A stretch of DNA of 32,000 bases from Methanococcus maripaludis (GCF_002945325.1 NZ_CP026606.1:1500001-1532000); one strand, 5' to 3'. Positions 4,947 to 13,714 are shown, counted from the stretch's first letter. A program made the numbers and translations. Notes: a model not told the origin generated them from the sequence alone.

Positions 4947-5318
4947 TTAATCCATCATCTGAATGTTTATCCAAAACATGACCAGTCCAACGAGATATTC
5001 AACTTCTTCGTCAGTTAATTCCTTATTTTTTGGAAATTTATGCCATTTTTGGATACATCCTCTACAGCAAGTTGCTGTTGCATGCTGTGCGATAAATACA
5101 GGATGTCCCTTCATTGGAGTCTGTTTTCCATCATTTTTTATGAATCCTGGTTTAATTCTCGTATTTAAAAACTCAAATGCATGGTTTTGGATTTTATTTA
5201 TTCCTTTATTTTTAATATATTCTTTATCTTGATTATTCAATTGAAATTTAGCCCTAAATTCTGATTTCATAAGTTTTTTATAAATTTCTTTGTATTTTTT
5301 GTAATCTGAAATATCCAT
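4947..5318 (-). CDS. DUF4186-family protein
   Basis: 123 aa carrying HPVFIAQHATATCCRGCIQKWH, which I recognise as the conserved DUF4186 core. Confidence 0.7.
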   Translation of the reverse strand: MDISDYKKYKEIYKKLMKSEFRAKFQLNNQDKEYIKNKGINKIQNHAFEFLNTRIKPGFIKNDGKQTPMKGHPVFIAQHATATCCRGCIQKWHKFPKNKELTDEEVEYLVGLVMFWINIQMMD

Positions 5319-5421
5319 AACTATCCCGAAAATAATATAAAAATTTCAAAAACGAAACCCATAGTCTTGTTTCAATTACTGTTTTAAAAAACTTTCACAA
5401 AAAAAGTAAAATATAAAGAAG

Positions 5422-7425
<2,004 letters not shown>

Positions 7426-7446
7426 TTTTACACCCCAAAGAAGAGG

Positions 7447-7472
7447 ATGGCTGAATTTTAATTTTCAGCCAT
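7447..7472 (-). other. Intercistronic hairpin (9-bp stem, 8-nt loop) between the two surface-protein genes
   Basis: atggctgaa (7447-7455) pairs perfectly with ttcagccat (7464-7472). It lies in the 56-nt gap between the stop at 7482 and the start at 7425. Confidence 0.4.
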
Positions 7473-7481
7473 TATTAGTAT

Positions 7482-10400
7482 TTACTGTCCTGCAAAGTTG
7501 CATTCTGAGTCTGAATATGCCCAGTATGCGTAGGTTGGTATAACTTGACTGCCACCATTAAGTTTTATCCATCCACTAGGACTAAATTCAAGTACTTTAG
7601 TAATGGATGGGTATCCTCCAGTGAAGTCACTGCATAACACAGGATCAAGTGATCCACCGTATGTATTTACACCTACAAGGTTCCATCCACAGCAAAGTTG
7701 TATTTCAGGTGGTGTATCTGTAGCTGTTAATGGTACGGTGTATATCGGCATACTTCCTTCGCAGGTACCGATGTATACATAACCTTCAAGTGGTTCGAAT
7801 CCACTTGCTAATTCCCACTGTCCGTCGGTGAATTTCACAAATGAACCGCTTGTAATTCCTGAGTCAGCAACCATTTGTGCTGTATCTACTTTTCCAGGTA
7901 CTGAAAACATTTTCAAGTTTTCAATTTCAATTGAACCTGTACTTTCTGCAGCTTCCGAAATTCCTTTCAGTTCTGCACTGCAATCAACTATTGGGAATCC
8001 ATGTGGGCCAAGTATTGCAGTCTGATTTATTTTAATGCTTATTTCTGTAGTATTGGTAATTATATTACTACTAGATCCAAGGGTAATTATTATCATATGG
8101 TCATTTATTGCACTTTCAGCCATTGTAGCTCCAGTTCCGAAGCTTCCACCGATGATATCAAATCCATCCAATGGGCTTGCAGGATCATAGGAGTCATTAA
8201 TGCTTACTGTGTCATTAAATGTTACTTTTAATGTATTGCATGGTTCGTAGCATGCATTGAGTATTTTTACACATTCTCTATCTACTGTAGTGTTTGTATC
8301 ATTAATTACTGGTATTCCACCATTTTCGATACATATGGCTCTTGTATCAGTCGCTTCCATGTTGTTGCAATCTTCATCGAATGCATAAGCGACAAGACAG
8401 TAGCATCCGTCTTCTAGGATTGTAGTGTCAAACATGTAGCTCCAGAGTCCATCACTACACGTAATTTCATCTGTAATCATGCCTGGAACCCCTTCATCAA
8501 CATACCATAATTCGATAGTGTCGATTACAGGGCAGTTTTCTACAGTTCCTCCAACTTCAATTGTACCGGATTTAACTCCTGAATTTACTGCTGGAGTTAT
8601 TAATGTAATTCCAAAGTTGTTGTCCACATCGATCATGTCTGTATCTGATGCGATTGCGCCTTGACATGGCCAGCCGTATGCTGAAACTCTTATTTCATAG
8701 AGGCCATCCATTGTGCACGTATTAAGATCGATTGTCCATTCCATACCTTCACAGTCACATGTTGTAGGAAGGTATATTACAGATACGCCAGGGAAATTAG
8801 TCCAGTCTCCCATAGGTTCTCCTGTAGGTTCACATATTTTTCTGTATTCAAATTCTAAGTAATCTAAGCACGCGCATTCCGCAGTACCTTCTATTGTAGT
8901 GGTTCCTGCAACTTTAGGTTCAGCTCCAGGTCCTGTAATGTCCACCATTACAAGATTGGAGTCGTATTGTATGCACTCGTATCCTGTTGTTATTGTAGTG
9001 TATGTATTTCCACATGAGTATTCTGCTTCAGCATAAATCTGTGTTGATGCTCCATTCAATATACATGGGTTAAAGCACAGTCCCCACTCCCAGGTACCGT
9101 CGCCAATGTATCTGAAATCTTCAGCAGGTACTTCTCCGAGAAGTCCAAGACTTGCGGAGTATACTTTTACGCTTTCTACTCTTTCATCTACTAAGCATCC
9201 AGTTAGAGTTCCTCTAATAGGTGCTTTATCTCCTGTTACATAGTATACGCAACAGTCAGGGCAGGTTAGATCAATTTCGACAGCGTTATTTACATTAACC
9301 ATTACATTGCTTTCGCTCTGGTCACATGGGCCAGTAACAACTGCTTTTAAGTATAATGGTCCATCTTCAAAGCAGCACGTGTTAAGTGGTGCTTTCCATC
9401 TTCCATCTTCTACATTTACATCAATATCTTCTTTGTATAATGTCCAAGATGTGTTATCTTCTGATACATAGAAGTCTACGTTTGAAACTCCCGCACCGAC
9501 CGCTGTACCGTATACCCAGAAGTTATCGCACACGGTCTGTCCGTCGATTGGTTTTGAGATCGAAACACCTGATGTGTCATCTACATAGACATCCATAACG
9601 TATTCTGCACGTTCAAAGTCTCCGCATTCGTCATTTTCACATGGTTCTACTACTGCTTTTATTTCGTAGTGTCCATTATCAATGCAGTTTACCATGCATG
9701 AAGACCAGGTTACATCCCAGTATGCATAATGGTCCCACCAGTTGAAATTCGGTAAGTTTGGATATAATGGATCTATTCCGTAATCTGTAAAGTCAATGTA
9801 CTGTTCGCTGTTTTTCCAGTTAAGGAATGCGCTGTCCATTGGCAACCAGTTTTCGCTTCCATATTCCCTCCAGTAGAGATCTACATGGTCAGGCAGGCAA
9901 ACGTCGTCAGTATCTGGCCAACACCACCAGCCGCAACAGTCTGCATCTACCCATACGAATCCTCTTATAACTTTACCGTTGTATATTGTGTTTCCTTCGC
10001 AAGGATCAATTATTTCAATGTCAAAATCATTGTATATGCTCGTTCCAATAGGTTCAGATTCAAATTCTCCGCAACCTCCTTCTGCAACACCCCTTATTCT
10101 TACATATCTTCCTTCTTCATCCTGAATATCTTCTGGTGTACACCAGTCAGTTTCCCAGGTTCCTGATTTGAGGCATGCTCCTTCATAAGTCCATGTAATT
10201 GAACTTTCAGTACAGCTTGCATCTTTCCAGCAGTTGTCCCATTCGATATACCATTGGCATCTATCTACCCGTACCATATGTCCAAAGTCGTATTCTAAGT
10301 CTACGTAGTCAGGATAATCTATCCAGCAGGTTGGAACTGAGATATTACCAAATGCAGTAACTGTTCCACTTTGTATGTCGTATACTCTGTAGCAATCATT

Positions 10401-11972
10401 ACCCATCCAGCATTCTTCGTATACGCAGTCTTCAAGTTCAATTGTCAAATTTCTTTCGTTGCAGTATGCAAATTCAACGGTGTCATATCTAAATTCATCG
10501 TAGCATTCGCATTTATCATCAACTACAGCGTATACTTCGTAGCATCCTGAGTCGAAATCACAGAATTTGTTTGTTGTAAAGGTCCAATCAGGCATTGTAG
10601 CAGATGTGGATCCTAAGTATACCATATCGCTTAAATTTTTTTCATTGATGTAATTATCGTGGTCTTCAGGGACTCCACAGATACATTCTGAAACTCCGTC
10701 TCCAAGATCTTCATTTGATGGATATCCGCAGTCTGGACAGAAGTATCCTGTAACTATTCCACCACAGCTACCACATACGATTGGATCCATTTCTGCACCG
10801 CAGTTTGGACAGATATTTTCAGCTAACTCTCGAGGTTCTTCTGCATCGAGTGTTATGATTTCTCCATCGCACACATTGCATGCAGGACAGCAAGCTCCAT
10901 CACAAAGTGTGAAGTTTCCTGTTTTTACTGCATAAAAGTCAATTTTTTGTGCAGCATTGCATGGATCGTTTAATTTACCTGAAAAGGTAATTGGCCCGCA
11001 AAGTGTCATACCACATTCTGGTGAAAGTGGTGCAGGGCATTCTATTTCAAAGCATACCTCTTCCCTTATAATTTCGAGGCATCCTACGTATTCGTCTCCA
11101 ATTTGTACACCATTGTATGTACAGTCATCGGTACAGTCTGCGTAAGGTGTAGCCGTTATTACATAGACTCCTCCGCAGTATAAGTTGTTAAATAATACGT
11201 CAAAAGTGTAGTTGCAGCACATTGCACTTTCGAAGTCTTCTCTATCTACGATGTATGTCATAGTAGGCATACATTCATCTACAGGGCATCTTGGAGTACA
11301 AGTGCCTTCTCCCATATATTCTGCAGTTATTATTATGTAATCAACGCATTCGCAGGATTCATTTAAACATCCTCCGATAACCCCTCCACAGGAAAGTGAT
11401 TCTGGAAGGTCTAAGTTTACAGCAACCCCTTTATCGAAGCATACGTAAACAGGCTCTGAAGGGCAGCCTACCTGTAAATCACATGCATCATAGAGTACTG
11501 TTCTTAATACATAACAGCCATCTGGTTCACAACAGATAGGCCAATCTAAACTCCATTCAGCAGGACAATATCCTTCTAAAGTGCTATCAACACCTGCAAG
11601 GCTCCATCCTTCTCCGTTATCTGCTGCAGGATTACCGCATTCGCAGTAAAGTTCGCAGTCACAGCAGTAAGGGCTTAATTGTTTATAATATACTTTTACG
11701 TAGTCCGCACATCCCAAATCATCATTATAGCATGGTACGATTGTCCCGGTAATTGGAACTTCATCACACCACGTGGATGCGCATTCTGGTGAAGTAATAC
11801 TAACGTTAAAACATCTATCGTCAGTGCAGTTACAGTCTATAATTATGGTACCTGAACCACCGTTACATGTGCAATCACTTAAAGTGGTAGTATCAGATGC
11901 CATAACACCCCCCATATTTGAGAGAACCATAACAAGTACTAAAAATAGTGCCTGTCCTGATTTTTTATTCAC
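7482..11972 (-). CDS. Giant secreted cysteine-rich multi-Ig-like-domain protein
   Basis: 1496 aa. GTG start preceded by AGGGGTG. Signal peptide MNKKSGQALFLVLVMVLSNMGGVMA. About 110 Cys by hand count. The recurring module ending G.Y.h.A.h.D.C resembles the bacterial Ig (Big_7-like) signature dG.Y.l.a.A.D..GN. Many N-x-S/T sequons. No C-terminal TM segment. Confidence 0.85.
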   Translation of the reverse strand: MNKKSGQALFLVLVMVLSNMGGVMASDTTTLSDCTCNGGSGTIIIDCNCTDDRCFNVSITSPECASTWCDEVPITGTIVPCYNDDLGCADYVKVYYKQLSPYCCDCELYCECGNPAADNGEGWSLAGVDSTLEGYCPAEWSLDWPICCEPDGCYVLRTVLYDACDLQVGCPSEPVYVCFDKGVAVNLDLPESLSCGGVIGGCLNESCECVDYIIITAEYMGEGTCTPRCPVDECMPTMTYIVDREDFESAMCCNYTFDVLFNNLYCGGVYVITATPYADCTDDCTYNGVQIGDEYVGCLEIIREEVCFEIECPAPLSPECGMTLCGPITFSGKLNDPCNAAQKIDFYAVKTGNFTLCDGACCPACNVCDGEIITLDAEEPRELAENICPNCGAEMDPIVCGSCGGIVTGYFCPDCGYPSNEDLGDGVSECICGVPEDHDNYINEKNLSDMVYLGSTSATMPDWTFTTNKFCDFDSGCYEVYAVVDDKCECYDEFRYDTVEFAYCNERNLTIELEDCVYEECWMGNDCYRVYDIQSGTVTAFGNISVPTCWIDYPDYVDLEYDFGHMVRVDRCQWYIEWDNCWKDASCTESSITWTYEGACLKSGTWETDWCTPEDIQDEEGRYVRIRGVAEGGCGEFESEPIGTSIYNDFDIEIIDPCEGNTIYNGKVIRGFVWVDADCCGWWCWPDTDDVCLPDHVDLYWREYGSENWLPMDSAFLNWKNSEQYIDFTDYGIDPLYPNLPNFNWWDHYAYWDVTWSSCMVNCIDNGHYEIKAVVEPCENDECGDFERAEYVMDVYVDDTSGVSISKPIDGQTVCDNFWVYGTAVGAGVSNVDFYVSEDNTSWTLYKEDIDVNVEDGRWKAPLNTCCFEDGPLYLKAVVTGPCDQSESNVMVNVNNAVEIDLTCPDCCVYYVTGDKAPIRGTLTGCLVDERVESVKVYSASLGLLGEVPAEDFRYIGDGTWEWGLCFNPCILNGASTQIYAEAEYSCGNTYTTITTGYECIQYDSNLVMVDITGPGAEPKVAGTTTIEGTAECACLDYLEFEYRKICEPTGEPMGDWTNFPGVSVIYLPTTCDCEGMEWTIDLNTCTMDGLYEIRVSAYGWPCQGAIASDTDMIDVDNNFGITLITPAVNSGVKSGTIEVGGTVENCPVIDTIELWYVDEGVPGMITDEITCSDGLWSYMFDTTILEDGCYCLVAYAFDEDCNNMEATDTRAICIENGGIPVINDTNTTVDRECVKILNACYEPCNTLKVTFNDTVSINDSYDPASPLDGFDIIGGSFGTGATMAESAINDHMIIITLGSSSNIITNTTEISIKINQTAILGPHGFPIVDCSAELKGISEAAESTGSIEIENLKMFSVPGKVDTAQMVADSGITSGSFVKFTDGQWELASGFEPLEGYVYIGTCEGSMPIYTVPLTATDTPPEIQLCCGWNLVGVNTYGGSLDPVLCSDFTGGYPSITKVLEFSPSGWIKLNGGSQVIPTYAYWAYSDSECNFAGQ

Positions 11973-12498
11973 AAAAACACCCCTGTTTTCATATTAAATA
12001 TATCTAAATGACCAATATATGGAGTAACCTCTAAGCAAGTTTTGATATACTATCGAAAACTAAAAATTCCCCCGAATTTTAATATGTTTTCAAAATACTC
12101 CAATATCCATAACTGGTCACAAAATTCTAGTTAAATACTTTCGTATTTATCCCAAACAATGTTCTAAATTTTATTTCGTCTTATTATGACCTTTACGATG
12201 AAATGTTTACGGCATTTTACGCGCCCCTCTTCTTATTCCCCGAACAAAACTATGTTAAATAAACTTTTTAAACCTTTCGAAATTATAATTTTTAAAATAA
12301 AGGTCTAAAAAATGTTAATTAAAAGATTAAACTTAAAATTTAGATTTAAAGTTAAATTAAATTTATAAAAAATTATAATTTAATTATTAAATGTATAAAA
12401 ATAGATTAAACATAATATTCCCAATTATAAAGTTTATGATATATAATTAATCTTAAATAATCGGGATTTAACTGTTTTTAAGCACTTAAAATAGTTTT

Positions 12499-12547
12499 TG
12501 AAAAACAAAATTTTTTCGAAAAAACAACCTAAAAAAGAATAAAATCG
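12499..12547 (-). terminator. Cluster of oligo-T tracts (archaeal intrinsic termination signals) downstream of the radical SAM gene
   Basis: The minus strand reads ...GATTTTATTCTTTTTTAGGTTGTTTTTTCGAAAAAATTTTGTTTTTC..., 50-100 nt after the stop at 12599. T5 or longer runs are the known archaeal terminator signal. Confidence 0.35.
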
Positions 12548-12598
12548 GGTTTTTTAGAAATTTACATATTAATTAGTTATTATTAACAAAATAAATGA

Positions 12599-13714
12599 TT
12601 ATTTTTTCTTTAATTTTAAATTAGGCTTTTTTGTAACAAGCGGGATTCTTTCAACTTCTAATTTATCAGATGTTGGGTAATATTCTGATATATACGCACT
12701 GAATTTAAAATCAAAGTTATTTTCTTTCAACTGATCTATTAAATCTTCTAAAATTTCTGGATTTAATAATATCCTATCATTTAAAAGCTCAAATTCTACA
12801 TCATTTTCTTTTAATATCTCAAGTACTTCTGAAACGTTTTCGATATCTTTAAAATTAATAGTTCCTTTTAATAAAAGGCCTTCTTCCGTAATTTCTTCGT
12901 AAGGCTTTGCAACGTTTCTCGCACGATTTATAAGCCGGTTTTTCATCTGAACACTGTCTTTTAATGAAGAAGGGCAGAAATGAATTATCATATTTCCTGT
13001 AAAATTGTCAATCACATATTTTGCAGTTTCAAAACTTCCTGAAATTCTGGATGTTGTATCATCTTTTTCAGAAAATCCTCTATCAATTAAAGCTTGATAG
13101 TTGGTTTCAGAATATTCGAGTTCATTGATATTTAAGAATTTTACGCCGATTTTATCGATTTCAAGGGCTAAATCTAAAATTTCTTTTTCAAAATTTGGAA
13201 TTCCTGGAATTTCAACTCCAACATCTTTAATATATTTTTTACAGAGTTTCAATTTTTTTAAAAAGTCCAATTTATCAAAATTTTCAAAATCATTGAATAG
13301 TTTTGATGAATGAAGCCTGATTTCATCAAGGTTTGCATCTTTTAAAAGCTTTAAATTTTCTTCATTGACAAATTTTGGTGTTGTGTAAAGATGTGCATGG
13401 AAATCCTTTCCAAAGTGTTCTTTCAAAGCTTTTAAATATTCAACAGTTCTTTCAATTCTTAAAAGCGGATTTCCACCTGTTATTCCAACACCTTTACTTC
13501 CGCAAAGATATGCTTCTTCAATCGCTTCTTCAATCGAATTGATTTGTTTTTCATTTGCAAAAATTACATCCTTTTTTTTCCTTTTTTCCGAAAGCGGGCA
13601 GTAGTAACAGGATTCTTCACAGAGTCCTGTAATATATAAAACCAGCTTTTCTCCTTTTATGCAGTATTTACAGCCCAATGCCATATTTTTTTCGTTTAAA
13701 TTTGATAAATCCAT
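12599..13714 (-). CDS. Radical SAM protein, PflA-related (COG2108-like), function unknown
   Basis: 371 aa. CxxxCxxC motif CEESCYYC near the N-terminus, GGNPLL (SAM-binding GGE-like) motif and TIM-barrel-like periodicity. Confidence 0.82.
   Translation of the reverse strand: MDLSNLNEKNMALGCKYCIKGEKLVLYITGLCEESCYYCPLSEKRKKKDVIFANEKQINSIEEAIEEAYLCGSKGVGITGGNPLLRIERTVEYLKALKEHFGKDFHAHLYTTPKFVNEENLKLLKDANLDEIRLHSSKLFNDFENFDKLDFLKKLKLCKKYIKDVGVEIPGIPNFEKEILDLALEIDKIGVKFLNINELEYSETNYQALIDRGFSEKDDTTSRISGSFETAKYVIDNFTGNMIIHFCPSSLKDSVQMKNRLINRARNVAKPYEEITEEGLLLKGTINFKDIENVSEVLEILKENDVEFELLNDRILLNPEILEDLIDQLKENNFDFKFSAYISEYYPTSDKLEVERIPLVTKKPNLKLKKK

Follow-up and report, generated by a model that had tools for sequence, protein, structure and literature searches.

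The stretch of DNA analysed here, 32,000 nucleotides of the Methanococcus maripaludis genome (NZ_CP026606.1, 1500001-1532000; hereafter the window), carries on its minus strand, at exactly 7482..11972, an open reading frame (ORF) that starts with GTG and encodes an exported protein of 1496 residues with 110 cysteines, called the giant below. The modules, signals, and neighbouring genes for which coordinates are given below lie on the same strand. The original prediction, made from the sequence, had placed the frame at this position with ~110 Cys and a density of ~12% in the first 440 residues; the exact counts are 110 (7.35%) and, for that region, 52 (11.8%), and the eleven peptides that it quoted are all found, at residues 102, 358, 676, 152, 267, 476, 767, 871, 977, 1090, and 1189. 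In the 24 remaining ORFs of the window, Cys makes up 0-3.25% of the residues, typically about 1%, and exported prokaryotic proteins in general contain few cysteines, with bacterial means of about 0.5-2.2 (PMC2823432). The assignment to a methanogen was correct, the protein being identical by exact look-up to the M. maripaludis records AVB77023.1 and WP_104838400.1, from a chromosome of 1,714,918 bp that is probably that of strain JJ. Its orthologue in M. maripaludis S2 is CAF30749.1 (Q6LY00), the product of MMP1193, a name used here for the whole family; every source lists it as a 'hypothetical protein', and neither MMP1193 nor the downstream gene MMP1194 is named in the main text of the literature searched.

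Export, selection, and transcription of the giant gene

The giant, with a size of ~160 kDa, is extremely acidic (247 Asp and Glu vs. 59 Lys and Arg), contains only seven His, and has 15 N-x-S/T sequons compared to 9.9 +/- 2.9 expected. Its only hydrophobic segment comprises residues 5-27, and there is no C-terminal anchor, in agreement with the signal peptide and the lack of a membrane anchor noted originally. This segment belongs to a predicted class I (Sec) signal peptide (residues 1-25, MNKKSGQALFLVLVMVLSNMGGVMA|S, 11898..11972) that is kept in the orthologues. The same N-terminus, MNKKSGQALFLVL..., superficially resembles prepilin signals, and M. maripaludis attaches by pili, so that the giant might instead be pilin-like or associated with type IV pili, with a class III signal peptide (KKSG|Q) and retention via its N-terminal hydrophobic helix. 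However, the residue at -2 is Ser rather than a charged one, the M. vannielii orthologue has KKSA|R, with an Arg at +1 that by inspection is unfit for prepilin peptidase, and all orthologues have a good class I site (V-M/I-A|S/L) after the hydrophobic region, and a pilin-like giant is accordingly very improbable.

The start codon itself is also well defined. A Shine-Dalgarno-like GGGGTG (11978..11983, minus strand) positioned five bases 5' of the GTG is conserved in three diverged orthologous loci (L001, L002, and L003), and the 23 codons that precede Met24 are conserved as protein in orthologues with 80% and 66% identity. Because residue 24 is Ile in the 80% orthologue (P0002), and because both the upstream codons and the Shine-Dalgarno sequence are conserved, a shorter product starting at Met24 must be wrong. 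Starts at Met24 (MALDTT...) are found in P0021 (strain KA1), P0014, P0022, and P0003 (M. vannielii), with the signal peptide lost from those entries. The annotations that drop the signal peptide in some strains are now corrected, and the 'hypothetical protein' is provided with a domain map. AT-rich, TATA-box-like sequences at 11991..12020 (minus strand) are candidates for the operon promoter, as suggested by a reading of the sequence, by the oligo-T terminators of the radical S-adenosylmethionine (SAM) gene that lie upstream, and by the separate transcription of that gene.

The giant gene is real, under purifying selection, and transcribed, as follows from its intact frames and conserved start, as well as from the substitution pattern and the published operon data. 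The ratio of nonsynonymous to synonymous substitutions (dN/dS, Nei-Gojobori) amounts to 0.217 when the gene is compared with L002, the 80% orthologue, and to 0.213 for M. vannielii, at a dS of 1.17, with regional values of 0.14-0.27 everywhere along the gene, and frames of ~1500 codons have stayed intact in three diverged lineages. In the operon atlas of M. maripaludis S2 (PMC10450193, Dataset S1), which combines PacBio, dRNA-seq, Term-seq, and RNA-seq data, 'MMP1193 MMP1194' is listed as one operon, with wild-type values of 32.6 and 18.4 fragments per kilobase per million (FPKM), MMP1192 as a separate transcription unit with 38.7 FPKM, and mch with 1724 FPKM. The sequence layout agrees with this operon, since the gap between MMP1193 and MMP1194 is only 56 nt and contains a second GGGGTG (7431-7436), the Shine-Dalgarno sequence of the partner gene, and no strong T-run follows the hairpin located there. 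Oligo-T tracts are present only 3' of the partner gene and 3' of the radical SAM gene; U-tract terminators are usual in M. maripaludis (PMC8716108). The hairpin, found on reading the sequence directly after the giant's stop codon (7448..7471, minus strand), has a perfect 8-bp stem, TGGCTGAA-N8-TTCAGCCA, and may modulate read-through or mRNA stability. It precedes the ribosome-binding site of the partner, and the FPKM in S2 is 33 ahead of the hairpin and 18 behind it.

If the gene were a relic without function, or its long frame spurious and never expressed, this would agree with the low FPKM, with the missing detection in the proteome of Xia et al. 2009, and with the lack of any characterised homologue. 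Against it stand the dN/dS of about 0.21 at dS of up to 1.17, the ~1500-codon frames kept open in three lineages, the conserved start, Shine-Dalgarno sequence, and signal peptide, as well as the measured transcripts and the experimentally defined operon, which leave this explanation with hardly any credibility. The original prediction had asked for transcript or peptide evidence, and the former exists, at ~33 FPKM, while the protein is absent from one high-coverage cell proteome.

Ig-like modules and the distribution of cysteines

Nine modules of the immunoglobulin (Ig)-like type can be aligned in register along the giant, followed by a C-terminal region of a different kind. Each module starts with the pattern h-x-h-x-x-P...G-x-h-x-h-x-G and ends with W...C...dG-x-Y-x-h-x-A-x-h...C, and the consensus of all nine reads v.v.I..P...G...i.GT...C...DyV..Yy...W...NtC...dG.Y.I.AVa...C. 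The original prediction had counted at least eight copies of the closing motif; the alignment adds one beyond its list (GRYVRIRGVAEGGC, residue 621), and a strict regular expression of the motif retrieves four copies compared to 0.155 expected, with a maximum of three in 5000 shuffles. The Cys-dense M1 (residues 55-181, 11430..11810) is recognised by its in-register A/B-strand start and its G.Y...C end, while M2 (residues 183-303, 11064..11426), M3 (residues 306-506, 10455..11057), which bears an insert described below, and M4 (residues 508-650, 10023..10451), with the ninth motif copy, are delimited by the module alignment. M5 (residues 651-799, 9576..10022) is Trp-rich, includes the peptide DADCCGWWCW, and is placed by both composition and alignment. 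The modules that follow are M6 (residues 801-896, 9285..9572), M7 (residues 897-1007, 8952..9284), defined by the alignment, M8 (residues 1008-1119, 8616..8951), and M9 (residues 1120-1219, 8316..8615), the most canonical of them, whose region is covered by every distant database match. The C-terminal domains M10 and M11 (residues 1220-1496, 7485..8315) are poor in cysteines and appear to be lineage-specific, with no Pfam match, no relatives outside the family, and an AlphaFold2 predicted local distance difference test score (pLDDT) below 40.

Searched as a whole, the giant has no match in Pfam or NCBIfam. Isolated M6 scores 21.5 bits with Big_7 (PF17957; E 3.6e-4), under the gathering threshold of 24.1 bits, and the M. 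vannielii orthologue P0003 passes that threshold with 34.7 bits. A hidden Markov model (HMM) iterated from M9 across the distant matches retrieves both M6 (E 1e-12 to 1e-13) and M9. When compared by hhalign with a profile of 112 domains that was built solely from distant Big_7-annotated proteins, M6 is matched with a probability of 91.8% and M9 with 97.5% (E 5.8e-12), and M8 is linked to them through M9 (74.7%, E 2.6e-5); M1-M5 and M7, as well as M10 and M11, yield nothing significant with that profile. The likeness to Big_7 domains that had been proposed for the modules therefore holds for M6 and M9, and for the orthologue at the level of Pfam, and is for M1-M5 and M7 a matter of the consensus pattern. 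In AlphaFold2 models of the two halves of the chain, computed from four-sequence alignments, nearly all of the structure is β strand, with pLDDT values of 40.9 and 40.7. Foldseek searches with these low-confidence models return only tandem arrays of Ig or fibronectin type III (FN3) domains, with 6xi3 at the top both times (E 3.8e-9 and 1.1e-5 for the two halves, TM-scores 0.13-0.23), an indication of the fold class that lends weak support to the assignment. By sequence, then, the giant is a chain of nine diverged Ig-like modules, two or three of them demonstrably of the Big_7 type.

The cysteines follow this framework. In the alignment of the nine modules, the column just after strand F is Cys in all nine, and Cys is present in five of nine modules at each of three more positions, located at the strand B end, in the E-F loop, and in the C-C' region; at the former two, another three modules have it in a neighbouring column. 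The cysteines are flanked by residues typical of loops (Pro, Asp, Glu, Asn, and Gly). In the Ig and FN3 topology, the BC loop is next to the FG loop at one pole, and the CD loop next to the EF loop at the opposite pole, and given this canonical neighbourhood the four recurrent positions would fit two staples per module. In the alignment of orthologues, 76-77% of the cysteines are invariant compared to 60% of residues overall, so that Cys ranks with Trp, Pro, and Gly; 85 of the Cys columns show no change between four lineages. Several of the changes among orthologues are shifts of one to three residues, and others are paired: three sequences have acquired both C443 and C445, and paired losses are found for C112 and C298, C225 and C298, C153 and C178, and C1427 and C1428. 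Of the 13 orthologues, which are not independent of each other, 11 have an even number of cysteines.

The many CC, CxC, and CxxC pairs that the original prediction had emphasised do exist (8, 10, and 7, respectively), yet their number reflects no more than the local density of cysteines: gaps of one to four residues number 32, compared to 31.6 +/- 3.8 in block shuffles that preserve this density (p = 0.52), and an enrichment of such pairs was rejected on these grounds. In the same way, at least four clustered CxxC are encountered in 10.5% of shuffles, which is not significant. CxxCH haem motifs are found neither in the giant nor in its M. vannielii orthologue, and with only 7-8 His the protein does not have the makings of a multihaem c-type cytochrome; a ferredoxin-type CxxCxxCxxxC(P) motif is likewise not present in the giant. 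Where a cysteine has been lost, its place is taken by Y, W, G, S, N, D, E, P, V, L, I, K, F, or A. Since the replacement is never His, and is Asp only three times, alternative metal ligands are disfavoured at these positions.

One region of the giant differs from this pattern. The insert in M3 (residues 357-432, 10677..10904) contains four knuckles, C365xxC368, C388PNC391G, C400GSC403G, and C412PDC415G, three of them of the C(P/G)xCG form, and resembles a zinc ribbon. All eight knuckle cysteines are invariant in four lineages, from M. maripaludis to M. vannielii. The only sequence similarity to a structure in the Protein Data Bank (PDB) that was detected with the profile of the giant or its family lies here, with 9fny (E 0.027-0.035) and 6sw9 (E 0.46), where the four knuckles are aligned. 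Zn-ribbon families of Pfam match the insert with E 0.018 or weaker, all under their cut-offs. The M3 insert is thus a plausible metal site, and the sole candidate for one in the giant.

These observations bear directly on the possibility that the giant is a thiol- or metal-sulfide-binding exoprotein, in which free or metal-liganded thiolates would bind Fe, Ni, Zn, aqueous FeS clusters, or mineral and Fe(0) surfaces, in the service of attachment or metal acquisition. The extreme density of Cys in an organism of sulfidic habitats with no known disulfide catalyst, the invariant four-knuckle insert, and the strongly negative net charge are what such a protein would be expected to have. In addition, pyrite reduction by Methanococcus needs either contact or an extracellular factor of >100 kDa, and in M. 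voltae on FeS2 it is a different Cys-rich protein that is enriched outside the cell (PMC9431491); the low expression of the giant in standard medium would fit conditional induction. The spacing of the cysteines, however, is that expected from density (p = 0.52), CxxCH and ferredoxin motifs are missing, as are all but seven His, the lost cysteines were never exchanged for His and only three times for Asp, and the cysteines occupy recurrent loop positions of the framework instead of surface patches. Furthermore, no homologue was found in the pyrite-reducing M. voltae. We consider a thiol- or metal-sulfide-binding exoprotein of this kind, the foremost of the alternatives, unlikely.

Range of the family and neighbouring genes

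A search of 5.8 billion clusters with the full-length giant returned only three 90%-identity clusters, with 97%, 80%, and 66% identity to the giant. An exhaustive HMMER search with residues 25-1224 against 1.84 billion representatives added to the family cluster only seven giant repeat proteins, whose matches cover residues ~1046-1194. The C-terminal 276 residues, searched separately against the 5.8 billion clusters for a shared anchoring domain, have no relatives outside the family. The 66% cluster corresponds to the M. vannielii SB protein P0003 (1494 residues, 92 Cys), which occupies the equivalent position in its genome (L084, CP000742.1 551083-573050). In the protein searches this orthologue surfaces solely under a 'Logan' label, and it was the locus of the partner gene that led to its recognition; protein and GTDB searches alone would give too narrow a range. 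A scan of genome contigs with the family alignment gave no match, and a scan of genomes with Mch returned no Methanococcus, the best hit being Methanothermococcus with 80%, so that this collection seems to miss or mask the source genus. No relatives of the giant were found at 80 other mch loci, including those of Methanothermococcus and Methanocaldococcus, nor in cluster and representative searches in M. voltae.

The window and the M. vannielii locus are collinear over 13 genes, encoding LonB, an aldolase, RpiA, FKBP, mch, the radical SAM protein, the giant, its partner, orf182, PstA, PstB, PhoU, and a decarboxylase, with identities of 74-89% for housekeeping products, ~65-66% for the giant, and 51% for the partner. 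The order is constant, with the giant located between mch and the radical SAM gene on one side and the collagen-like, membrane-anchored partner on the other. These comparisons describe a fast-evolving and vertically inherited family limited to two sister species, M. maripaludis and M. vannielii.

The narrow range, together with a G+C content of 40.8% compared to 34.1% for the window, might suggest that the giant is a recently acquired foreign gene. The excess had been noticed in the original prediction, which left open whether amino-acid bias or foreign origin was responsible. It resides in codon positions 1 and 2 (GC1 0.478 and GC2 0.440, with GC2 of the neighbours at about 0.24-0.41, around 0.32), whereas GC3, at 0.306, is within the range of the neighbours (0.20-0.34). 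Cys codons favour TGC over TGT (65:45), despite third positions with ~20-30% G+C genome-wide, a preference that contributes to the slightly raised GC3. The excess is due to amino-acid bias (Gly, Asp, Cys, Ala, and Pro) plus the preference for TGC. A foreign origin is rejected because GC3 falls in the range of the neighbours and synteny is conserved, over 13 genes with M. vannielii; donor-like homologues were also missing from the cluster and representative searches. A recent acquisition is, in our estimate, most unlikely.

The partner gene, orthologous to MMP1194, encodes 667 residues (5422..7425) and is assigned from its reading frame, the operon listing, and Pfam; oligo-T tracts 3' of it (5385..5420, minus strand), recognised by reading the sequence, are the likely terminator of the two-gene unit. 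Its product starts with a class I signal peptide and continues with a (GDT)13 collagen-like Gly-X-Y run, accompanied by shorter ones, a Ser-rich stalk, and a C-terminal transmembrane anchor. Three repeats of ~115-127 residues, with DNA periods of 345/381 bp, are 91-98% identical to each other at the DNA level. Pfam reports DUF4183/F-ENA with 29.9 bits, over the cut-off, and Collagen with 20.5 bits. Real homologues are found only in Methanococcus, annotated as 'surface protein, anchor region' or 'collagen triple helix repeat', and their lengths of 395-717 residues suggest changes in the number of repeats. In each locus examined (L001-L003 and L084), the partner adjoins the giant on the downstream side. 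Its stalk is probably trimeric.

On the other side of the giant, the radical SAM gene (MMP1192, 12599-13714), with a CX3CX2C motif and a DUF8061 match, adjoins mch in both M. maripaludis and M. vannielii. Mch itself is CAF30747, the product of MMP1191 (PMC3475374), and MMP1192 is listed as a radical SAM gene at S2 coordinates 1174250:1175365 (Xia et al. 2009). The enzyme might modify the giant, for example by introducing thioether cross-links of the kind found in sactipeptides and ranthipeptides. Its gene lies directly upstream of the giant in both species, while among 80 further methanogen loci none has it less than 10 kb from mch, and there are weak NCBIfam matches to peptide-maturase families. 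Yet these matches are far under the cut-off (35 bits vs. 268), the two genes belong to separate transcription units with oligo-T terminators and a 626-bp spacer between them, and MMP1192 was seen in the proteome in which MMP1193 was not. With only about eight Cys, MMP1192 has too few for a SPASM-type auxiliary-cluster domain, and a Sec substrate of 1496 residues is unlike the known precursors of ribosomally synthesised and post-translationally modified peptides. Modification of the giant by this enzyme is thus highly doubtful. A precursor of the SCIFF, sactipeptide, or ranthipeptide type was considered as well and rejected, there being neither a co-transcribed SPASM maturase nor a short precursor.

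The 626-bp spacer (11973-12598), unusually long and with about 24% G+C, contains tandem repeats at 12292-12407, which are AT-rich and degenerate, and around 12195-12250 a short island rich in G+C (GGGGAATAAGAAGAGGGGCGCG...). Elements that regulate the weakly expressed operon could reside in this spacer, and an Rfam scan of the window detected no RNA element. Between the partner gene and the pst operon, a DUF4186 gene (4947-5318, 123 residues, E 1e-49) has no tblastn match in the collinear M. vannielii locus. As it lacks a counterpart there, it represents a small lineage-specific insertion or loss.

A proposed cross-braced rod and comparison with known systems

Taken together, the data would be accommodated by the following mechanism. 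The acidic giant of ~160 kDa would be exported by Sec to the cell exterior, where nine diverged Big_7-type Ig-like β-sandwich modules would form a rod that continues into two lineage-specific C-terminal domains. Around four cysteines per module, at the end of strand B, in the C-C' region, in the E-F loop, and just after strand F, would most likely be paired to form staples at both poles of the module. Such staples might be disulfides or metal-thiolate bridges, and either would yield a rigid extracellular rod resistant to denaturation and proteases, while the four-knuckle insert of M3 could plausibly hold two metal ions. Since an anchorless rod is co-transcribed with an anchored stalk, the two proteins may form a tethered surface complex in which membrane-anchored MMP1194 holds the giant at the cell surface, and together they would probably mediate adhesion or surface spacing. 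We infer the pairwise bonding and its chemistry, the tethering by MMP1194, and the adhesive role from these features, and we put the chance that the giant is a rigid, cross-braced rod of Ig-like modules, displayed via MMP1194 and serving in adhesion or surface spacing, with staples of either chemistry, at about even.

Several points weigh against this model. Cys totals are odd in two of the 13 orthologues, and the counts per module are not all even. The models of low pLDDT offer no Cys-Cys geometry behind the proposed pairing, and the argument from neighbouring loops is borrowed solely from canonical Ig topology. When compared by hhalign with the Big_7 profile, M1-M5 and M7, which share with it the consensus pattern only, are not significant (<5%). 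Tethering and adhesion are deduced purely from operon linkage and architecture. To our knowledge, methanococci have no extracytoplasmic thiol oxidase, and we know of no DsbA/DsbB/VKOR-type system for Methanococcus, whose cultures are sulfidic, so that disulfides would lack a known oxidant. Finally, neither MMP1193 nor MMP1194 appears in the high-coverage cell proteome that lists MMP1191, MMP1192, and MMP1195 (Xia et al. 2009). Low expression, release to the medium, or Cys-rich or glycosylated peptides that are hard to detect could account for the absence of MMP1193.

The chemistry may also be more unusual than assumed here. We can speculate that the giant is an extracellular thiolate scaffold kept in the reduced state, which would bind FeS species, sulfide minerals, or Fe(0) and bring about the mineral interactions by contact that have been reported for Methanococcus, or else that ~50 staples are formed by an unknown Dsb-independent chemistry, whether disulfide, metal-thiolate, or persulfide, although we hold either to be quite improbable. 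As for the cross-braced rod, the original prediction had preferred metal or thiol chemistry to simple cross-bracing as the meaning of the Cys density, a preference that is at odds with the framework loop positions of the cysteines, with their conservation at the level of Trp, Pro, and Gly, and with their mostly paired gain and loss. The underlying premise that extracellular disulfides are implausible in such habitats was too strong, given that extracellular inter-subunit disulfides have been proposed for the sheath of Methanospirillum hungatei, grown in a medium reduced by sulfide and cysteine (PMC10593813).

A selected and transcribed exoprotein with 110 cysteines, encoded in a tractable methanogen, offers a clean test of whether and how strict anaerobes cross-link their extracellular proteins. 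Besides the giant and its collagen-like partner, no large surface protein stands out as specific to the lineage of M. maripaludis and M. vannielii, and the two are therefore candidates for attachment to partner cells, minerals, and metal surfaces, with relevance to syntrophy, pyrite reduction, and biocorrosion.

Comparison of the giant with systems described previously reveals partial similarities to several of them. The sheath protein SH of M. hungatei likewise has a structural role outside the cell of a strict methanogen, with disulfides proposed between its subunits (PMC10593813), but it has two Cys per monomer, forms an amyloid-like sheath, and has no sequence relationship to MMP1193, apparently a monomeric rod with 110 Cys. 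The VARTIG proteins of Thermococcales (arCOG07710) are also large, exported, fast-evolving archaeal multi-Ig proteins with conserved Cys and with small partner genes downstream; they differ in that just two Cys are conserved, both of the distal Ig domain, in the DNNxxxGG sorting motif at their C-terminus, and in their location in hypervariable islands (PMC8416519). In contrast, the MMP1193 locus is stable and collinear between species, and no sequence similarity between the two was detected. The insert of M3, in turn, shares with an archaeal four-knuckle Zn-ribbon RNA-binding protein (9fny, 6sw9) four CxxC motifs, including CPxCG, with similar spacing (residues 363-415). That protein, which binds two zinc ions, is cytosolic, ribosome-associated, and 60 residues long, whereas the motif of M3 is located inside an exported Ig-like module, and the match is marginal (E 0.027-0.46) and due to Cys, Pro, and Gly.

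The extender of an RTX large adhesion protein (6xi3, tetra-tandem Ig-like) offers a parallel for the overall architecture, as a long acidic rod of tandem β-sandwiches that projects a distal domain away from the cell surface. RTX extenders are stiffened by Ca2+ and not by cysteines. MMP1193, for its part, is archaeal, exported by Sec, and devoid of RTX repeats and of a type I secretion signal, no Pfam or NCBIfam match to such features being present in its C-terminal 276 residues or elsewhere in the giant.

The sole detectable distant relatives (E 2e-39 to 7e-4) are the giant bacterial repeat proteins of the Big_7 (PF17957), Big_13, and Big_3_3 types (P0004-P0010), which share with MMP1193 the beads-on-a-string tandem arrangement and an Ig-like module with the dG.Y.h.A.h.D ending. 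The similarity is limited to residues ~1046-1219 (M8-M9) and to M6, and these proteins have no counterpart of the Cys-dense N-terminal modules, the knuckle insert, or the C-terminal domains. Because they contain only 0-0.9% Cys, compared to 7.35% in MMP1193, the Cys load is an innovation of the lineage of M. maripaludis and M. vannielii on an Ig scaffold. MMP1193 belongs to no characterised adhesin class, a question that the original prediction had raised, and at the level of domains it is a known Big_7-type tandem Ig surface protein. It is set apart from the known Big_7 proteins by the ~50 potential staples, the Zn-ribbon-like insert, the orphan C-terminal domains, the collagen-like anchored partner, and the strictly anaerobic archaeal host.

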